The notes under the pieces were generated by a model. That model was given only the letters and a program-made list of their open reading frames with translations, was not told the DNA's origin and ran no database searches. From Candidatus Saccharimonadota bacterium (GTDB lineage Bacteria; Patescibacteriota; Saccharimonadia; Saccharimonadales; UBA4665): a DNA stretch of 32,000 bases. Shown in pieces: positions 3,381 to 26,322 of this stretch (the first letter of the stretch is position 1; every line of letters begins with the position of its first letter). Location of the stretch: contig CP065016.1 in NCBI GenBank assembly GCA_016700375.1, positions 780,001-812,000 of the forward strand, written 5' to 3'. A program made the position numbers and the translations under genes.

Positions 3381-6149
3381 TTATGGGCGTTTTTTGCGAT
3401 TATTGTTATTTGGGGTTGCACCAGGCAAGACTGAAGCATGGCGGCTACGTTTCGTGGCCTGCTTCCGAGCTGTACGCGCACGCTTATCTCTTAGCCAGTG
3501 CACTGCTTTGCCAAGCCCGCGAAGGGCAACGTCCTCGTCATCCTCAATATATGCACCGACTACTTCCTGTCCTGCTTCTAAGGACGCTTCTTGATCGGCT
3601 CTATGTGTTGGACGGAGCAAACCGGGTCCCCGTAGCGCTGGATTTGTGCTTCCCGGTCCTGCTGGTGTAAGTCGCTCGGCATTAGTAGCAAATGGATCGG
3701 GCTGACCTACCTGAATAACAACGGCTGCCTTTTCTCTAAAGTTTCGACCAGGCGCTCCAGTGTCAGGATTTCTACCTTCCTGACCATATTCTTCAATAAA
3801 TCGTTGAGCAGCTTCTCGAGGGTCACCTTCTGTCTCCAAGATATCTCGTATGCTTACATTGTTCTCGCTATACCGGCGCGTTGCTGCATCATCACGCGGT
3901 ACATCACCGTCGCCGAATATACCGGCAGAAGTTATGAGTATTTTATCGCCTCTTTCAAGTGCCCGAACAGCGATTTCATGGCCATTTCGAGTGACATGAG
4001 CGACAAGGTCATCGCCTTCAAAGGCATCAGCTAACGTGCCGTCGCGGTAGACTGCAGCCATGCCATGACCCGCACGAGCTGCAACTAAATGAGGTTTCCC
4101 ATTTACCTCTATGATACGGGTGAGTACTCCTTCAGCATCATTTCGCTCACCATGCAAGGCAGTCGCATTCGCGCTACGCTGCATGGCTTCATGCAGCTGT
4201 GTCATAGCGTCTTCTATAGTACGGGGTTGGGGTTGGTTTTCAAGGTATAGGCGCGCTCTTTGTTGAGCGGCTTCGGCGGGGCTACGACCGCTTCTCACAT
4301 CGGCGTTTTTAAGTAAATTGTAAGCACTGTATATGCCTCGCGCATCATCAGCTCCACTAAAAGCATGTGGACTGAAATCTGTACGACTGAATGATTCCCT
4401 TGTGCGACGAAATGTTCTGCCCTGACCGGAGCGAATATCGAGTGGACGAGGTTTCATTACCTCGCCATACTGCAAGAGAATTGCAGATTTATCTGCGCCT
4501 GTTCTCCCTAAGGTGCAACATAATTCCGCTGCACGCTCGGCGGACTTTGCATCTGAACCATTTCCAAGCGCCGCCACCGTAAACACATCTCCATATTCAC
4601 GGAGAAGCTGGCTAGGCAAGTTCATGCTACGAGCGTCCCTGTCTTTTTGCTTATCACTTAAGGTGCCACCCGAAGCAAGAAGGACCATGTCCCCAGGCTG
4701 AAGCTCAACACTAAAGAAGCCTCCTTCATTTCCATCAACATGGTGCGGATGTCCGAAGCCATCAGCCATATACGTTCCAGTTTCTTGGGTTTTTCCTATA
4801 GGGGTTAGCTGTCCATTTCGCCAAAGCATGATAGGCGAGTTTCCAATGCTTCCTGTTATGAGGTAATCCTTCCCTTCTATGTGCTCAACCTTTGCAACAG
4901 TGGCAGACGAAACTCCGCCACTACCGTCACGAGGTAATGTTTCTTGGGTATGCATAAATGCCGCCTTCATCCGTGCCGCGGCCTCAGCAGGGCTCTCGGG
5001 TTGACCTTCTTCTTGAGCATAGAAGTCCCTTATAGCTTTTTCGGCTTGTCTGGTAGCGTTTTGTGCATTGCTTGTTTCGCTCAGCCCACCAAAAACAGCA
5101 TACAATCCGCGTTCATCTATGTGCCTATCTTCACCGCGAGGCGTACGCTCTTTTGCAACCGAACGAAGTGGGTGATTTAGTTTTCTTACTTCTGGGGTTT
5201 TTTTACGCTCCGATGCTTTCGGACTGTCTTGCGCTGGTTCAGGTTTTGTAGGCTCCGTTTGTTCCCCACCTTTTTTAGCAGCGGCTTCCGCTGCCTTTTT
5301 TCCAGCTTCGTTGTGCCCATATAGCCGGGCCCCGACGTCTTTCGGCAATACCGTTTCTGTCACATTGCCTGAAGCGTCTGTTTCCACTAACGTGTACTCG
5401 GCGTAGGGAGCACCACTTGGCGCAGTTTTTTCAGTCCTAGTCACGCAACCCGCAAGCGCATCAAGCTCCCCTTCTTCCTCTCGAGTCAGCAAGGACGGCT
5501 TCCCTTTTCCGGGGTGCCTTCTTGTCAGTAAATCTCTCACCCCGTCATATCCATCACCTGAGGTCTTGGTCTCCGGCGCAGACGCACCAGAAGTGGACGG
5601 TTTAGGATTGCCCGACCCAGTTGGGGGAGCATGCTTTTTTGAGTTAGTTGGACGACCGCTCCCGGTTCTTGCGGTGCCCCGAGGAGGCTCTGTGCCAACA
5701 GGTTTTGGCGCGGTCCAGCCCGAAGGAGTTGAACTACCTGTCTCTGTATTATCCTGTGGGCTCCACTGGCGCCTATAGTCCAAAAGTGCCTGCCCAACGG
5801 TAGGATTGAGTTCCTCCTCACGGGGCTTCCCGTCTTGGCCGGTTGTCGTGCGGAAAAATAAAGTTTGTGGCCCCATGACAACTTCATCGCTATCACTGGC
5901 TGCAGAACCATCCTCAATATACACCGTCTCGGTCCTGACTCCGGCTGCAAGTTTGTCTAGGGCTGCAAGGTCATCTGGTGGCTGGGCGCCTGTGCGAGCC
6001 CCATCCGCAACCCGAAGCATTGTAGCTTGCAGATCATCAACCAATTCGGGAGTGAATGGTCCGGCAAACCTGTCTGCAGGGTCAACGATAGGTCCGGCCT
6101 GGTCGGTCGGGTCTATTGCGGGTGTGATTCCTTCGCCTGGTGCTGCCAT
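3381..6149 (-). CDS. 922-aa hypothetical protein: disordered P/G/S/T/K-rich N-terminal third, two degenerate PP2C/SpoIIE-like modules, strongly basic C-terminal tail
   Basis: Uninterrupted 2.77-kb ORF. A PP2C-like motif order occurs twice (GLYAVFGG.. / ITGSIGNSPIMLWRNGQL / GDMVLLASGG / ADKSAILLQY, and again AARAGHGMAAVYRDGTL / GDKILITSAG / KAAVVIQV), with the usual metal-binding Asp residues replaced. The tail is ..RDKRARTARKQATKRSRH...NRKKRP. No signal peptide is evident. Confidence 0.7.
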   Translation of the reverse strand: MAAPGEGITPAIDPTDQAGPIVDPADRFAGPFTPELVDDLQATMLRVADGARTGAQPPDDLAALDKLAAGVRTETVYIEDGSAASDSDEVVMGPQTLFFRTTTGQDGKPREEELNPTVGQALLDYRRQWSPQDNTETGSSTPSGWTAPKPVGTEPPRGTARTGSGRPTNSKKHAPPTGSGNPKPSTSGASAPETKTSGDGYDGVRDLLTRRHPGKGKPSLLTREEEGELDALAGCVTRTEKTAPSGAPYAEYTLVETDASGNVTETVLPKDVGARLYGHNEAGKKAAEAAAKKGGEQTEPTKPEPAQDSPKASERKKTPEVRKLNHPLRSVAKERTPRGEDRHIDERGLYAVFGGLSETSNAQNATRQAEKAIRDFYAQEEGQPESPAEAAARMKAAFMHTQETLPRDGSGGVSSATVAKVEHIEGKDYLITGSIGNSPIMLWRNGQLTPIGKTQETGTYMADGFGHPHHVDGNEGGFFSVELQPGDMVLLASGGTLSDKQKDRDARSMNLPSQLLREYGDVFTVAALGNGSDAKSAERAAELCCTLGRTGADKSAILLQYGEVMKPRPLDIRSGQGRTFRRTRESFSRTDFSPHAFSGADDARGIYSAYNLLKNADVRSGRSPAEAAQQRARLYLENQPQPRTIEDAMTQLHEAMQRSANATALHGERNDAEGVLTRIIEVNGKPHLVAARAGHGMAAVYRDGTLADAFEGDDLVAHVTRNGHEIAVRALERGDKILITSAGIFGDGDVPRDDAATRRYSENNVSIRDILETEGDPREAAQRFIEEYGQEGRNPDTGAPGRNFREKAAVVIQVGQPDPFATNAERLTPAGPGSTNPALRGPGLLRPTHRADQEASLEAGQEVVGAYIEDDEDVALRGLGKAVHWLRDKRARTARKQATKRSRHASVLPGATPNNNNRKKRP

Positions 6150-21806: not shown

Positions 21807-21931
21807 TGGCGGAGGGGGAGGGATTCGCCTCGGGCCTTCTGCCTGACCACTCAGATTGCCACCGGCAATCTTCGGGCTTCGGGGCGGGGAGTGCCACAGG
21901 CACTCCCGTTCTCATCCCGTCCCAGGTCAAA
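21807..21931 (-). other. tRNA-Ser(CGA) 3'-end copy (T-arm and acceptor, 3-nt T-loop deletion) preceded by two perfect hairpins
   Basis: 21807-21827 matches 21966-21986 at 20/21, then continues with CCTCG after a missing AAC. Hairpins lie at 21854-21870 (7 bp) and 21887-21907 (9 bp). No 5' acceptor strand is present, so it is not a tRNA. Confidence 0.55.
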
Positions 21932-21965: not shown

Positions 21966-22057
21966 TGGCGGAGAGGGAGGGATTCGAACCCTCGATAGAG
22001 TTGCCCCTATACTACATTTCGAGTGTAGCGCACTAGACCGGACTATGCGACCTCTCC
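21966..22057 (-). tRNA. tRNA-Ser (anticodon CGA), CCA encoded
   Basis: The 92-nt cloverleaf was read by hand: acceptor GGAGAGG/CCTCTCC, anticodon loop CTCGAAA, long variable arm, T-loop GGTTCGAATCC. Confidence 0.9.
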
Positions 22058-22412: not shown

Positions 22413-22489
22413 GCACCCGTAGCTCAGCTGGATAGAGCGTTGGCTTGCGGAGCCAAAGGTCGTAGGTTCGAATCCTGTCGGGTGTACCA
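22413..22489 (+). tRNA. tRNA-Arg (anticodon GCG), CCA encoded
   Basis: 77-nt cloverleaf with anticodon stem TTGGC/GCCAA and loop TTGCGGA. Confidence 0.9.
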
Positions 22490-22521: not shown

Positions 22522-22533
22522 CTTGATTATTCC

Positions 22534-23609
22534 GAGTTATAGGCAAAAACGTGTTGGTTTTCTCCCCTCGCTTCGTGTATAAAGGTACCAATTAACAAGC
22601 ACTCGTTGGTGCTCACGAGACATGCCTCTATGGTACTTTAGTTTGGTTCGGATTTGGCTGTTCATGCCACCCTCAACATGGTTTGTGGTGCTTGGCAGTT
22701 CTGCGTGTGGTCGGTAGCTTGAACGAAGCGCATCATCTGTGACTTTATCGAGCTGACGGTAGGCACTACGGAGTCGTTCGTGGGTGTACCGCCAGCTCCT
22801 TTCTCTTGGTTTTGGGTAAGGTTTTACGGTTCGTTCGTTGACATAGTTTTGGTGCCGCTTGTACCAACGTCTTAGTCTTTGTTTCCAGTGCCTGGCATGT
22901 TTTCGTGTCCTAACATGGAGCAAATCTTTGGTGAGTACGAGCAGCTCTTTTCCTGCAATTGACTCAGGATGCAGTGTCAGTTTTGTTTTTACATTAAGCC
23001 AGATATGGAATCGACAGCGCTGGACGATCGTACCAGGCCAACAGAGGGGAAGAGCCTTCAGGAGGCCTTTCTGGCCGTCACAAACAACGTAGGTAGGTGC
23101 AGGCAGTGAGGCGAGGAACGTGGCCCAGTATGTACTACTTTCGTATGGTACCCACATCCAGGCAATAACAAACATAGTCGTTCGGGCAATGAGGCAGACG
23201 TGGCCGCTAACACGGATGCCATCAACGATGACACAGTGATGACATTCACCCCTCAGCACACTCGGCACGGGCACGCCCCAGCACCAGGCAGTCTGGTCAC
23301 GAAACGTTCGGCTAGCCGCAGCTAAGTCGTCCTGAGAATCCTTGCCGAGCAACCAAGACATGAATCCCTCAAACACAAACACTCGCCGTAAGTCTGGTCG
23401 TGGCTTTGTGGCTGTGAGGCTACACACAGGACACCTCCATCGCTGCTTCCCAGCACCTGTCTTGCCCCATTTCTGGAGCTTAGTTTTACACACACGACAA
23501 TAGCGAAAACCTCTCTGTTTCATAGGTAAGTAATGTCTACCGACATTACTTATGAGTCAATAACAGAGGTAAAAGTGGTGAAACACCAACACGAGGGTGC
23601 CTATAACTC
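22534..23609 (-). mobile_element. IS element copy 2 (1076 bp) with 8-bp target-site duplication ATTATTCC
   Basis: Same sequence as 14575..15650. ATTATTCC is found at 22526-22533 and at 23610-23617. Confidence 0.92.
22537..23523 (-). CDS. DDE transposase (identical to the 14578..15564 product)
   Basis: The 328-aa translations in the track are identical. Confidence 0.88.
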   Translation of the reverse strand: MKQRGFRYCRVCKTKLQKWGKTGAGKQRWRCPVCSLTATKPRPDLRRVFVFEGFMSWLLGKDSQDDLAAASRTFRDQTAWCWGVPVPSVLRGECHHCVIVDGIRVSGHVCLIARTTMFVIAWMWVPYESSTYWATFLASLPAPTYVVCDGQKGLLKALPLCWPGTIVQRCRFHIWLNVKTKLTLHPESIAGKELLVLTKDLLHVRTRKHARHWKQRLRRWYKRHQNYVNERTVKPYPKPRERSWRYTHERLRSAYRQLDKVTDDALRSSYRPHAELPSTTNHVEGGMNSQIRTKLKYHRGMSREHQRVLVNWYLYTRSEGRKPTRFCL

Positions 23610-23655
23610 ATTATTCCGGAGGTTTGGGGCTACGACCAACGAACGAAGTGAGTGT

Positions 23656-23746
23656 AGGTCGTAGGTTCGTACAGGAATGAGCGTACAGGTGCTTGCACCG
23701 AAAAGCGAGTTCCGTGCAAGCGTAGCACATCCTGGCGGGTGTAGCA
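23656..23746 (+). other. tRNA-Arg 3'-half copy split in the T-loop by a 59-nt insert
   Basis: AGGTCGTAGGTTCG (14/14 against 22457-22470), then 59 nt, then ATCCTGGCGGGTGTAGCA (16/18 against 22472-22489). The insert contains the stem GCTTGCAC/GTGCAAGC. Confidence 0.6.
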
Positions 23747-25487: not shown

Positions 25488-25533
25488 ATTTCTACACTAT
25501 ACCATAAAACGGTATAGTGTACCGTCATCTTTG

Positions 25534-25542
25534 TGTTATACT
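25534..25542 (+). promoter_or_regulatory. Extended -10 (TGtTATACT), 9 nt before the tRNA-Ser(UGA) 5' end
   Basis: ttTGTGTTATACTcgtaaaagaGGAGAG. It is preceded by a 10-bp perfect hairpin at 25494-25520. Confidence 0.5.
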
Positions 25543-25551
25543 CGTAAAAGA

Positions 25552-25641
25552 GGAGAGATGTCCGAGCGGTTGAAGGAGCTTGTCTTGAAAACAAGTGTGC
25601 CGGCAACGGTACCGTGGGTTCGAATCCCACTCTCTCCGCCA
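25552..25641 (+). tRNA. tRNA-Ser (anticodon UGA), CCA encoded
   Basis: 90-nt cloverleaf with anticodon stem CTTGT/ACAAG, loop CTTGAAA and a long variable arm. Confidence 0.92.
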
Positions 25642-25712
25642 TACAAACTGTGTATGCCCCGAAGGGGTATATGGAATTTGTATGCTGAGTGAGCGGGTGC
25701 ACGAGCCTTCCT

Positions 25713-25822
25713 AGGTTCGGCGGACGAGGAACGCAGCTACAAACGTGCTTGCATGTTTATAGCGAGTACCACAGGGAGGAGGGCGAGCTGGAAGCTCGCC
25801 CGATATCCCTCGCTCTCCGCCA
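25713..25822 (+). repeat. tRNA-Ser-3'-end-like structured module, copy A
   Basis: It begins AGGTTCG and ends ATCCCTCGCTCTCCGCCAA. It is 105/109 identical to copy B. Confidence 0.8.
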
Positions 25823-25953
25823 AGTTAACAAATGCCACGCCGTCTGATAAAATAACGGCAAGCATTCCCGCAGAAAGGGAAAAGAGCAGCCCGACAAAAT
25901 GGTTCACATTTTGTCGGCGCGATGAGAAAAACCGCAGGTTTGTCTCATGCCCC

Positions 25954-26046
25954 GGAGAGGTACCCAAGTGGCTGAAGGGGACGGTTTGCTAAATCGTTAG
26001 AGGGGCGAGAGTCCCTGCGAGGGTTCGAATCCCTCTCTCTCCGCCA
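25954..26046 (+). tRNA. tRNA-Ser (anticodon GCU), CCA encoded
   Basis: 93-nt cloverleaf with anticodon loop TTGCTAA and a long variable arm. Confidence 0.92.
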
Positions 26047-26053
26047 AGTAAAT

Positions 26054-26084
26054 AGAGTCTGCTCGAAAGGGTAGGCTCTTTTTA
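26054..26084 (+). terminator. Terminator hairpin after tRNA-Ser(GCU)
   Basis: AGAGTCTGC..GTAGGCTCT followed by ttttt. Confidence 0.7.
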
Positions 26085-26116
26085 CTTGGCCTGAGATGGG
26101 GTGAGAACACTCGCCC

Positions 26117-26228
26117 GAGGGTTCGGCGGACGAGGAACGCAGCTATAAACGTGCTTGCATGTTTATAGCGAGTACCGCAGAGAGGAGGGCGAGCTGGAAG
26201 CTCGCCCGATATCCCTCTCTCTCCGCCA
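26117..26228 (+). repeat. tRNA-Ser-3'-end-like structured module, copy B
   Basis: It begins GAGGGTTCG and ends ATCCCTCTCTCTCCGCCA, which is identical over 18 nt to the 3' end of tRNA-Ser(GCU). Confidence 0.8.
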
Positions 26229-26235
26229 AAGAAAT

Positions 26236-26270
26236 AGAGTCTGGCTGAAAAAGCTAGGCTCTCTTTCTTT
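26236..26270 (+). terminator. Diverged second copy of the tRNA-Ser(GCU) terminator hairpin
   Basis: AGAGTCTGGC-tgaaaaa-GCTAGGCTCT followed by ctttcttt. Compare 26054-26084. Confidence 0.5.
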
Positions 26271-26322
26271 GATATAGGGATTGATTCGAACGCGAGCGCC
26301 AGTGGCGCTCAGCCGCACAGGG

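Follow-up and report, generated by a model that had tools for sequence, protein, structure and literature searches.

The window analysed here, a 32,000-nt stretch of DNA from a Candidatus Saccharimonadales (TM7/CPR) genome, raises the question of what the two nearly identical structured sequences are that lie behind two different tRNA-Ser genes. An initial annotation made from the letters alone had described them as 96% identical modules, and had proposed a tRNA-derived small-RNA family, a miniature mobile element or nested att-site scars, without finding a described class that fits. The modules themselves are real. A repeat search returned 25714-25823 and 26120-26229 as a gapless pair of 110 nt, with mismatches at 25740, 25771, 25775 and 25812, and as the only two copies of this core in the 32-kb window. 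Both carry the two hairpins drawn on paper (25736-25763 and 25781-25801 in copy A, 26142-26169 and 26187-26207 in copy B). The difference said to perfect the first stem of copy B is the C>T change at 25740, which turns a C.A mismatch into a U-A pair, and folding also predicts the proposed GGCGGA/UCCGCC pairing. The tRNA-Ser 3' end was rightly recognized in both modules: B ends in 18 nt that match 26029-26046 of tRNA-Ser(GCU) exactly, and the end of A differs, as had been noticed, from that of tRNA-Ser(UGA), at 2 of 18 positions. The sequence after B (26236-26262) is indeed a diverged copy of the tRNA terminator (26054-26079). Two points had to be corrected. The units do not start at GGTTCG; they begin about 30 nt further upstream, at 25684 and 26088. 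The supposed copy of the variable arm before B is the conserved 5' strand of a family of elements, followed by the motif GAGAAC, and this motif is also found behind tRNA-Lys, tRNA-Gln and tRNA-Pro, all of them tRNAs without a long variable arm.

The A/B region reads as follows, all on the forward strand. The gene for tRNA-Ser(UGA), with its genome-encoded CCA (25552-25641; ARAGORN, and 59.5 bits with the Rfam tRNA model), is the cognate of unit A (25684-25822). In the gap between them a hairpin with a weak T tract (25651-25673; terminator-like scan) is a candidate leaky terminator. Unit A consists of a 5' strand GAGCGGGU (25692-25699), a hairpin CGAGCC(U)/(A)GGUUCG (25702-25719), an inner closing strand GGCGGA-C-GAGG (25719-25729), hairpins 1 and 2 as given above, and the tRNA-like 3' end (25805-25822). 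It is bounded on its 3' side by a sigma-70-like promoter candidate (25825-25853; 10/12 matches and a TG extension, a consensus match only) placed before tRNA-Ser(GCU) (25954-26046; ARAGORN and Rfam), the cognate of unit B. After the intrinsic terminator T1 (26054-26084; terminator-like scan) comes unit B (26088-26228), with its 5' strand GAGAUGGGGU (26093-26102), GAGAAC (26103-26108), GGUUCG (26120-26125), inner closing strand GGCGGA-C-GAGG (26125-26135), a conserved purine-rich segment (26170-26187) between hairpins 1 and 2, and the 3' end shared with tRNA-Ser(GCU) (26211-26228). Then follow T2 (26236-26262), the diverged T1 copy seen by both the repeat search and the terminator-like scan, and a truncated 5' piece of another unit, "E" (26266-26316; blastn of the window against relative L003, and reading of the sequence). 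Unit E is complete in L003, between tRNA-Ser(GCU) and unit B. A small open reading frame starting at ATG 25753 in A and 26159 in B was discarded, its frame not being kept in the homologous loci L016, L021 and L028.

Two further units were identified in the window. Unit C (21807-21927, reverse strand) lies behind tRNA-Ser(CGA) (21966-22057, reverse strand) and its terminator. Its 5' strand GGGA-C-GGGAU (21923-21914) and GAGAAC (21913-21908) precede two hairpins, the first of which has compensatory changes relative to locus L001, and its minimum free energy (MFE) structure contains the closing helix with one bulged C. Unit D (23617-23746, forward strand), composed of GUAGGUUCG, an insert and AUCCUGGCGGGUGUAGCA, is of tRNA-Arg type, and an IS has inserted between it and tRNA-Arg (22413-22489). 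Relative L002 has unit D next to the tRNA-Arg terminator, with a second copy after it. A 328-aa open reading frame beside tRNA-Arg was considered as an integrase and rejected; it is a Mutator-family transposase fragment inside the IS. All four tRNA genes of the window are therefore trailed by a unit whose 3' end is copied from that very tRNA. In a scan of the window for promoter- and terminator-like sites, each tRNA-Ser gene was preceded by a promoter-like site and none of the units was.

Such an arrangement corresponds to a known kind of element. tRNA-linked repeats (TLRs) have been recorded in E. coli since 1978 (Egan & Landy 1978, Rudd 1999, Bosl & Kersten 1991, cited in PMC8144298). By definition they belong to a tRNA or rRNA operon and lie directly 3' of the gene on the same strand (PMC8144298, after Egan & Landy 1978 and Rudd 1999); their final 18-19 bp repeat the upstream gene's 3' end exactly, they occur as 1-5 units per locus, often in tandem, and they are part of the operon transcript and are processed into a discrete RNA (PMC8144298). 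We consider it very likely that units A and B are two paralogous members of this family, which has RtT/RttR from tyrT of E. coli as its archetype, so that a described class does fit (PMC8144298; RF00391). The assignment of A, B and C is to the wider TLR/RtT superfamily, not to Rfam RF00391 as curated. The copies behind tRNA-Ser in this Saccharimonadales genome are divergent members.

The evidence for this assignment comes from position, 3' end, copy number and motifs. Unit A begins 43 nt past tRNA-Ser(UGA), B 42 nt past tRNA-Ser(GCU) and C 39 nt past tRNA-Ser(CGA); D comes immediately after tRNA-Arg in L002, and in the window the IS has moved it away. Identity to the end of the own tRNA is 18/18 for B, 17/18 for C and 16/18 for both A and D, and reaches 18/18 in unit D1 of L002; among metagenome units, 42 of 80 are 100% identical to the upstream tRNA end. 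The window holds one unit per tRNA plus one fragment, and tandem units occur in relatives: two behind tRNA-Ser(GCU) in L003, two behind each of two tRNA-Ser in L039, and two behind tRNA-Arg in L002. Superfamily members share a 5' strand complementary to their own 3' strand, then (A/G)UGAGAAC and a GAACC/GGUUC hairpin. This order is found as GAGAUGGGGU-GAGAAC in B, as GGGA-C-GGGAU-GAGAAC in C, and in degenerate form, GAGCGGGU..CGAGCC/GGUUCG, in A, where GAGCG pairs with a CGCUC private to this unit. The A/B core has homologues in metagenome-assembled genomes of other Saccharimonadales and of Opitutus (Verrucomicrobiota), placed 40-85 nt after tRNA-Ser genes that represent four anticodons. Altogether the class spans Proteobacteria, Verrucomicrobiota and Saccharibacteria and trails at least nine tRNA identities. 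On viral contigs units were confined to contig ends or to a tRNA array, and phage carriage is not indicated.

A covariance model (R1) was trained exclusively on 27 metagenome units, with no E. coli, Opitutus or Saccharimonadales sequences; its E-values are rough, the calibration having been shortened. The metagenome set was gathered with a pattern fixing GGAUGAGAAY..GGUUCG..AUCC, which makes those columns uninformative. A pattern used for a genome scan gave 37 matches, of which about 30 were due to chance, in coding DNA. R1 recovers the four RtT units of E. coli tyrT (80-83 bits, E 1e-19) and, in the lysT operon, five TLRs that follow tRNA-Lys genes (24-35 bits), as well as the Opitutus units (53-56 bits) and the Saccharimonadales homologues of the A/B core (50.4 bits for L028, 35.8 for L016 and 27.6 for L021). 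Within the window it aligns unit B over its full length (24.7 bits, E 1.4e-4 over 103 kb) and detects unit C (19.4 bits, E 0.003). Unit A also aligns at full length, at 13.1 bits, which is inside the 13-18-bit range of bare tRNA 3' ends, so that its membership rests on its 96% core identity to B and on the bridge formed by L028, L016 and L021. R1 does not recognize units D and E, which are classed as TLRs solely by position and 3'-end identity. The Rfam models at their gathering thresholds return the four tRNAs of the window and nothing else. Below the RtT (RF00391) gathering score of 45 bits, the Rfam model aligns unit B (19.2 bits), unit C (14.4 bits) and the Opitutus unit (20.6 bits) over their full length with the same ends; unit A is unlisted, and the L039 units have no RtT match. 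Motif-sharing metagenome units score 44.6-99.4 bits, those behind tRNA-Pro or tRNA-Lys 77-99; Ser-type units score 24-29. Part of this likeness to RtT is derived from the tRNA and is common to any tRNA 3' fragment.

Each unit is a structured, non-coding RNA module some 140 nt long, directly 3' of a tRNA gene and on the same strand. The first of the three explanations initially offered, a non-coding, structured, tRNA-linked small-RNA family ending in a tRNA 3' end, is thus the one supported. The final 18 nt or so copy the 3' half of the T-loop, the 3' strands of the T-stem and of the acceptor, the discriminator and CCA. In our structural model, a dedicated 5' strand pairs with this copied end, reaching a few bp into the acceptor strand, and the closing helix so formed would enclose a multi-helix junction with (A/G)UGAGAAC, the GAACC/GGUUC hairpin and variable hairpins. 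Motif GAUGAGAAC follows the 5' strand in the plan shared by the E. coli TLRs and the Saccharimonadales units. The earlier description of a T-arm split in the T-loop is fair for the sequence and does not hold for the predicted fold, in which GGUUCG pairs with the upstream GAACC-type strand and the AUCC...3' strand with the dedicated 5' strand. The centre of A/B-type units is lineage-specific, with two covarying hairpins, a conserved GAGYACCGCAGGAAGGAG and the extra strand GGCGGA-C-GAGG, and has no sequence counterpart among canonical units. According to the model the extra strand can pair with ..CUC-UCCGCC, which would sequester the CCA-proximal end. MFE z-scores range from -2.4 to -5.5. Unit A (z = -3.4) is predicted with the 5'/3' closing helix, and the predicted MFE structure of unit B (z = -5.5) has the inner GGCGGA/UCCGCC helix instead of the outer one; the outer and inner closing helices may be alternatives or form a pseudoknot. 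A hammerhead or kink-turn reading of GAUGAGAAC, made on sequence only, was also considered: the ribozyme was dropped, there being no stem II or cleavage-site context, and tandem G.A pairs at the junction are a possibility.

Covariation agrees with this fold and is strong in the hairpins and in the closing helix. Across 8 Saccharimonadales sequences, 96.7% of the cells are paired and 12 of 34 pairs have double changes, compared to 35-62% and 0-2 pairs in slid controls. For 27 canonical units the corresponding value is 92.6%, with 68 double-change cells against a shuffled mean of 21. Set A5 had additionally been filtered for three closing-helix pairs, and a set of 30 units was analysed without that filter. 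In these unbiased units the 5' strand pairs in 0.90, 0.87 and 0.87 of the sequences at three T-stem positions, and at the next three positions, into the acceptor strand, in 0.57-0.77 against 0.375 expected by chance. The acceptor-pairing segment of this strand does not duplicate tRNA sequence in sense orientation.

The strong likeness of A and B had been read as a module that moved between loci. Paralogues within one genome are closer to each other (96% for A and B of the window, 93% for those of L003) than orthologues across genomes (88-91%), and within-genome paralogues have derived hairpin-2 sequences in common. Both observations point to concerted evolution by gene conversion, and it is from gene conversion, not transposition, that the A-B likeness comes. 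At the DNA level, it is the repeats of 3' ends and terminators that cause homologous recombination. Recombination between repeats accounts for the 96% identity, for the tandem arrays and for variants without an intervening tRNA gene; recombinant haplotypes and variants of copy number or order were found among close relatives (L003, L007/L008, L001), and the A/B recombinants of the L007/L008 type are without tRNA-Ser(GCU). Unit A of L001 is interrupted by a true MITE, with 18-nt terminal inverted repeats and a CTAAGG duplication.

The same recombination could be all there is to the units, as selfish or neutral repeats, harmless by-products of unequal crossing-over and gene conversion at tRNA 3' ends whose RNA has no function. 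Tandem arrays in L039, L096, L066, L079 and E. coli tyrT and lysT would suit this explanation, as would the copy-number and order variants of close relatives and the more than 40 years that have passed without a function being found for the E. coli TLRs (PMC8144298). We nevertheless hold it to be unlikely, since neutral repeats would not keep motifs and fold across three phyla and at least nine tRNA identities, nor show compensatory changes in the hairpins and a closing helix re-matched to each tRNA and reaching past the T-stem copy. A miniature mobile element that targets the T-loop, an insert of about 86 nt splitting the T-arm and present in near-identical copies at two loci, is very unlikely. 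Its attraction lies in the GGTTCG ... ATCC flanks, which resemble a split T-loop, in the 96% identical A and B cores with differing flanks, and in the many tRNA identities that units follow. However, that identity is the pattern of gene conversion, the conserved unit includes a 5' strand outside the "insert", and neither terminal inverted repeats nor target-site duplications nor dispersed copies were found: there are two core copies in 32 kb, every genuine unit with a callable tRNA sits behind one, and the genuine MITE in L001 looks quite different.

Slightly less credible still, in our view, is a history in which integrases targeting tRNA-Ser 3' ends left behind nested att-site scars or tandem tRNA duplicates that decayed. 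No integrase or island lies between the repeats, which are spaced by about 40-180 nt, and random decay would not yield interior motifs and covarying helices common to several phyla, even if integration at tRNA 3' ends is classic, the units are flanked by direct repeats that comprise the tRNA 3' end and terminator, and TLR arrays occur at the ends of some "viral" contigs. The least probable explanation, to be regarded as extremely unlikely, is that of a bacterial Y RNA, a YrlA-like tRNA mimic belonging to a Ro60 (Rsr)/RtcB RNA-repair locus. YrlA RNAs do mimic tRNA T arms (PMC4201824). In close relatives, TROVE/Ro60, a 77-aa protein and RtcB are encoded about 3.5 kb from A/B, and the tRNA-Arg-type units D1 and D2 precede rsr in the same orientation. 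A tblastn search of the window itself found neither TROVE nor RtcB, TROVE is also absent from the 8-kb loci examined around the A/B-type units in L016, L021, L028 and L039, and no unit has a YrlA match. For the Ro-binding motif GNCGAAN0-1G the units offer near-matches only, which carry no weight either way. The Ro60 loci of the related genomes L180, L182 and L184 lack tRNA-Arg and D units and have another conserved long-stem RNA right upstream of rsr, which is present in L002 too. E. coli has TLRs and is not known to have Ro60.

For the TLR assignment, a mode of production can be proposed. The copied tRNA 3' end would let the tRNA 3'-maturation machinery set the 3' end of the RNA, and maturation would release a stable RNA showing the 3' strand of its cognate tRNA. 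In E. coli, rttR is annotated as an RNA ending exactly at the CCA of the repeat. In Saccharimonadales co-transcription is not assured, because a good intrinsic terminator separates the tRNA from unit B. As to the role, our preferred guess is a mimic or decoy of the T-arm and 3' end of the cognate tRNA, aimed at factors that read tRNA 3' ends. A bolder proposal, which we regard as rather doubtful, is that TLR/RtT is an ancient pan-bacterial RNA class whose closing helix is re-tailored to each tRNA, the A/B type switching between CCA exposed and CCA sequestered. If this were true, the re-tailored helix would imply a function in reading or showing the 3' strand of a single tRNA, for instance as a cis-acting processing chaperone, or as a decoy or sensor of toxins or enzymes directed at tRNA 3' ends, and the switch would oppose the outer helix to the inner GGCGGA/UCCGCC helix. 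With the TLR assignment, a tRNA-derived module that seemed unclassifiable receives a class name, and its 96% identity an explanation in gene conversion between paralogues. The class becomes a better-defined experimental target, with the same fold behind tRNAs in a reduced CPR genome and in Verrucomicrobiota, and the covariation of the closing helix with the cognate tRNA adds to that definition. Divergent members are missed at current Rfam thresholds, and partial "tRNA pseudogenes" annotated behind tRNA genes may be TLR units.

Comparison with known systems places the units closest to the E. coli TLRs (RtT/RttR, RF00391). Both lie 3' of a tRNA on the same strand, as one to several units per locus, and end in about 18 nt of the tRNA including CCA; both have the T-stem/acceptor-complementary 5' strand followed by GAUGAGAAC, the GAACC/GGUUC hairpin and internal hairpins, and an independent covariance model detects the two groups. 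They differ in the cognates, here Ser and Arg instead of Tyr and Lys, in the CPR host, in the A/B centre, unrelated in sequence and with an extra inner strand predicted to pair with the CCA-proximal end, in the terminator that splits tRNA from unit, and in scores below the Rfam RtT threshold. RrA, RrB and RrF are TLRs behind the 5S rRNA of E. coli rrnA/B/D, located between T1 and T2, with read-through of T1 and trimming near the repeat of the upstream gene's 3' end (PMC8144298). Unit B likewise has the order T1-unit-T2, T2 being copied from T1, and A/B units also have a conserved GGA-rich single-stranded sequence; however, the upstream gene of RrA/RrB/RrF is 5S rRNA, not tRNA, and binding of Hfq and CsrA has been shown for those three only. 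YrlA and other Y RNAs (RF02553; PMC4201824) are also non-coding, with a T-arm-like element, sometimes ending in CCA after processing, and lie near RNA-repair genes, as TLR units do in close relatives. In YrlA both the T arm and the D arm are intact, a Ro60-binding stem is present and rsr is the neighbouring gene; the units lack a D arm, their T-loop is disrupted, they give no YrlA match and they are not consistently linked to rsr. Spacer sRNAs of tRNA operons such as 3'ETS-leuZ (PMC8144298) are similarly freed from tRNA primary transcripts by the tRNA-processing machinery, but are short unstructured trailers that base-pair with sRNAs, with neither a copy of the tRNA 3' end nor a conserved multi-helix fold. 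Finally, attL/attR duplications also place a direct repeat of a tRNA 3' segment 3' of an intact gene; such repeats bracket kilobases with an integrase and an interior without conserved structure, whereas the interior of the units is a conserved fold of about 100 nt.

The two modules that trail tRNA-Ser genes, unit A (25684-25822, behind tRNA-Ser(UGA)) and unit B (26088-26228, behind tRNA-Ser(GCU)), were compared by a repeat search of the window. As the initial annotation had claimed, they are nearly identical: 25714-25823 and 26120-26229 form a 110-nt pair without gaps and with 96% identity, and alignment shows four differences, at 25740, 25771, 25775 and 25812. The two hairpins, the complementarity of GGCGGA and UCCGCC and the tRNA-Ser-like 3' end are also present as described, and so is the second copy of the terminator behind B. 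Over its final 18 nt, B matches the 3' end of tRNA-Ser(GCU) exactly. The module is non-coding, a search for conserved ORFs in the units having found none. At curated thresholds, the sole Rfam matches in the window are the four tRNA genes. In a consensus scan, promoter-like sites are found only ahead of tRNA genes (25491-25518 and 25825-25853) and none ahead of the units, which would be consistent with read-through into the units. Unit B lies between two terminators, T1 and T2, the latter being a copy of the former. A perfect hairpin of 11 bp (CCGACAAAATG..CATTTTGTCGG, 25891-25917), situated between unit A and tRNA-Ser(GCU) and kept in the relatives L001 and L003, scores as a minus-strand terminator, though no minus-strand gene ends there.

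Each tRNA gene in the window has a comparable unit behind it. Downstream of tRNA-Ser(CGA) and the terminator of that gene comes unit C (21807-21927, minus strand), unit D (23617-23746) carries a tRNA-Arg-type 3' end, and a truncated fifth piece occupies 26266-26316. D sits directly behind tRNA-Arg in L002, a contig from a relative, whereas in the window an IS separates the two. This 1.09-kb IS (22530-23615, between the tRNA-Arg terminator and D) is absent from the same site in L002. Its terminal inverted repeats are imperfect and 28 nt long (22534-22561 / 23582-23609), and a 328-aa ORF within it (22537-23523, minus strand) partially matches Mutator-family transposase.

Relatives were located through the neighbouring 119-aa PD-(D/E)XK protein, present on 23 contigs of which ten were fetched. 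In L003 (the same contig as L019 of the genome scan, from a Candidatus Saccharimonadales MAG), tRNA-Ser(GCU) is followed by two units. In L001, a C-type unit stands where B would be, and A contains a MITE. This MITE-like insertion of ~190 nt (9772-9591, minus strand), just ahead of TTCG, shows terminal inverted repeats of 18 nt (CCCCTTGCATAAATAACC) together with a target duplication, CTAAGG. L007 and L008 contain a single A/B hybrid unit, with an A-type 5' flank and a B-type 3' flank and terminator, and lack the tRNA-Ser(GCU) gene; this haplotype implies either that recombination between A and B deleted the tRNA gene or that the reverse event, a duplication, took place. These variants show that the region is recombinogenic. 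Paralogues within one genome are closer (96% for A and B in the window, 93% in L003) than orthologues across genomes (88-91%), and have derived hairpin-2 sequences in common. The near-identity of A and B therefore reflects concerted evolution, not recent transposition, and the earlier view that the module moved between loci is not supported. Short palindromes of the GTCATTC..GAATGAC type recur in intergenic DNA of Saccharimonadales (L007 ~245-210; L039 5845-5925 and 6415-6510), one of them inside the L039 unit linked to tRNA-Ser(UGA).

GTDB species genomes were scanned with the pattern GGTTCGGCGGA-N55-85-CTCTCCGCCA. True homologues of the A/B core were found in four further Saccharimonadales/Saccharimonadia MAGs and two Opitutus (Verrucomicrobiota) MAGs; the remaining ~30 matches are due to chance. 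Five of the six homologues lie 40-85 nt behind a tRNA-Ser gene (anticodon UGA, CGA, GGA or GCU), and ARAGORN gave no tRNA for the sixth, L016. Hairpins 1 and 2 are wholly different in sequence among homologues with their pairing preserved, and the conserved segments are GGUUCGGCGGACGAGGARCGSAG, GAGYACCGCAGGAAGGAG and CGAUAUCC. The fold predicted by RNAalifold for eight Saccharimonadales A/B-type sequences is a closed three-way junction: P1 (GGCGGA-C-GAGG with (U)CUC-UCCGCC), which does not vary in the set; a stem of two pairs with A-U to G-C covariation; hairpin 1, with double changes in 7 of 12 pairs; a GGA/UCC stem; and hairpin 2, with double changes in 4 of 7 pairs. Overall, pairing holds in 96.7% of the cells and double changes occur in 12 pairs, values reached by none of 500 shuffles; slid controls gave 35-62% pairing and 0-2 double-change pairs.

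RtT (RF00391), the archetype of tRNA-linked repeats (TLR) from the E. coli tyrT operon, was the one recurrent Rfam match in E-value scans. The matches are full-length and boundary-exact, with weak scores (19.2 bits for B, 14.4 for C and 20.6 for Opitutus). Outside tRNA features, the RtT consensus and the units have in common a 5' strand with complementarity to the T-stem/acceptor 3' strand, the motif GGAUGAGAAC and ..AGGUUCGA. They also share CCCGAAG, GCGAAGCGACGAG, which the L001 C-type unit contains unchanged, and AAUCC followed by the tRNA 3' end. The K-12 tyrT locus has four such units, and in one of them the CCA is the exact end of the annotated sRNA RttR. Scanning metagenomes with GGATGAGAAY C-N1-14-GGTTCG-N50-80-ATCC gave at least 138 matches. 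Among the 138 matches listed, 80 follow a same-strand tRNA at a distance of at most 400 nt (Ser 30, Lys 14, Gln 9, Tyr 7, Glu 6, Pro 6, Arg 4, Leu 2, Met 1, Val 1), the unit mostly lying 30-70 nt downstream; the 14-nt tail equals the 3' end of the upstream tRNA in 42 of these 80, and several tandem arrays occur. Rfam RtT scores 44.6-99.4 bits on canonical metagenome units (Pro, Lys, Gln) and 24-29 bits on the Ser type, forming a continuum down to Opitutus and Saccharimonadales.

We built a covariance model, R1, from 27 non-redundant metagenome units, all E. coli, Opitutus and Saccharimonadales sequences being excluded. It scores the four tyrT units at 80-83 bits (E 1e-19), Opitutus at 53-56 bits, the loci L028, L016 and L021 at 50.4, 35.8 and 27.6 bits, and five TLRs behind tRNA-Lys genes of the E. 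coli lysT operon at 24-35 bits. In the window, B reaches 24.7 bits (E 1.4e-4 over 103 kb), C 19.4 and A 13.1, against a background of 13-18 bits for bare tRNA 3' ends. B and the A/B-type homologues clearly fall inside the RtT/TLR family; A is placed there through its identity to B, because its own R1 score is inseparable from the background. With these Rfam and R1 matches, the statement that no described class fits was not borne out. The five K-12 units (780.5-781.8 kb) lie one behind each tRNA-Lys gene of the lysT-valT-lysW-valZ-lysYZQ operon, and annotation for them is absent from the RefSeq record. Matches to sX4, an Rfam family for a Xanthomonas sRNA, span tRNA-Ser and its trailer with sub-threshold scores of 22-45 bits (L024 1171-1349; L039 6218-6376; L074 568-702; window 25541-25701); the sX4 model seems to cover a tRNA-Ser gene and the start of a linked unit. 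TLR units also occur on IMG/VR 'viral' contigs, arranged in tandem at the end of one contig (L178 5194-5742), at another contig end (L169 5833-5946) and behind tRNA-Glu within a 12-tRNA array (L177 9872-9976). They are probably host flank or tRNA-array DNA, not phage-specific elements.

In the canonical 27-sequence set, which was pre-filtered for three closing-helix pairs, a 10-bp closing helix (5' strand with the AUCC...3' strand) and a GAACC/GGUUC hairpin are supported, with 92.6% paired cells and double changes in 68 cells versus a shuffled mean of 21. The helix was recounted in 30 units picked solely by pattern and tail identity to the upstream tRNA. Its three T-stem positions pair at 0.90, 0.87 and 0.87, and the next four, opposite the acceptor 3' strand, at 0.57, 0.77, 0.67 and 0.53 (chance 0.375). 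At the outer positions the 5' strand is no sense copy of the tRNA (identity only 0.07-0.17). The closing helix is therefore selected, not merely inherited with a tRNA copy. In MFE folds A and C form the outer closing helix and B the inner P1 (z-scores: A -3.4, B -5.5, C -2.9, D -2.4); the predicted outer and inner helices may either alternate or coexist as a pseudoknot.

Other identities were weighed. A Y RNA was considered because close relatives carry Ro60 (TROVE), a 77-aa protein and RtcB between unit D and a 172-aa gene. The window lacks TROVE and RtcB genes, no TROVE turned up in the 8-kb loci retrieved around A/B-type units elsewhere, and YrlA has no match among the units. In three related genomes the Ro60 locus contains neither tRNA-Arg nor D; immediately ahead of rsr it has another type of RNA, conserved and with a long stem, that occurs in L002 too. 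The mobile element and att-site scar put forward in the initial annotation are also rejected: terminal inverted repeats, target-site duplications, an integrase and dispersed copies are all missing, and the fold is conserved.

The Ro60 region of L002 (1922-6099, also in L003) is a cassette missing between 23746 and 23801 of the window, and from L009 and L010. It comprises a second tRNA-Arg-type unit, a candidate Y RNA, TROVE/Ro60 (474 aa), the 77-aa protein, RtcB (391 aa) and a 200-aa zinc-ribbon membrane protein, and is a presence/absence polymorphism of an RNA-repair locus. More distant relatives (L180, L182, L184) have a kinase-phosphatase-T4 RNA ligase 1-type (Pnkp-like) protein in place of RtcB. 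Directly upstream of the Saccharimonadales Ro60 gene lies a conserved non-coding region of ~230 nt (L002 ~5750-5530, minus strand; L180 and L182 ~3745-3975; L184 ~3755-3985), probably this lineage's Y RNA. It combines a long terminal stem (ACAAUG..AGGACA / UGUCCU..CAUUGU) with a GUCAACGAAG segment, and the L180 copy also carries an intact T-arm (GCUGGUUCGAAUCCAGU). In L002, Rfam YrlA gave no match.

TLRs were first noticed at tyrT (Egan & Landy 1978; PMC8144298), and E. coli K-12 has 22 of them at ten loci, one to five each (Rudd 1999; PMC8144298). [quoted passage not shown] For the units studied here, the analysis shows position, 3'-end identity, conserved motifs, a covarying fold and recombination or gene conversion between units. 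By analogy with E. coli, a unit would be co-transcribed with its tRNA, its 3' end would be formed at the copied tRNA terminus by the tRNA-maturation machinery, and the product would be a stable RNA displaying the T-stem/acceptor 3' strand of the cognate tRNA in a helix. One may speculate that this RNA is a mimic or decoy for factors recognising tRNA 3' ends. The initial observation is correct and concerns divergent members of a known, poorly understood class; the phylum is new for the class, the centre is remodelled, and scores are below current Rfam thresholds. The presence of TLRs in a reduced CPR genome and a closing helix covarying with tRNA identity are useful, not revolutionary, additions. 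Three E. coli TLRs that follow 5S rRNA are flanked by terminators T1 and T2 and are transcribed by T1 read-through, their transcripts ending a few nucleotides past the repeat and being bound by Hfq and CsrA in vitro (PMC8144298). Unit B resembles them in its T1-unit-T2 layout, with T2 copied from T1.
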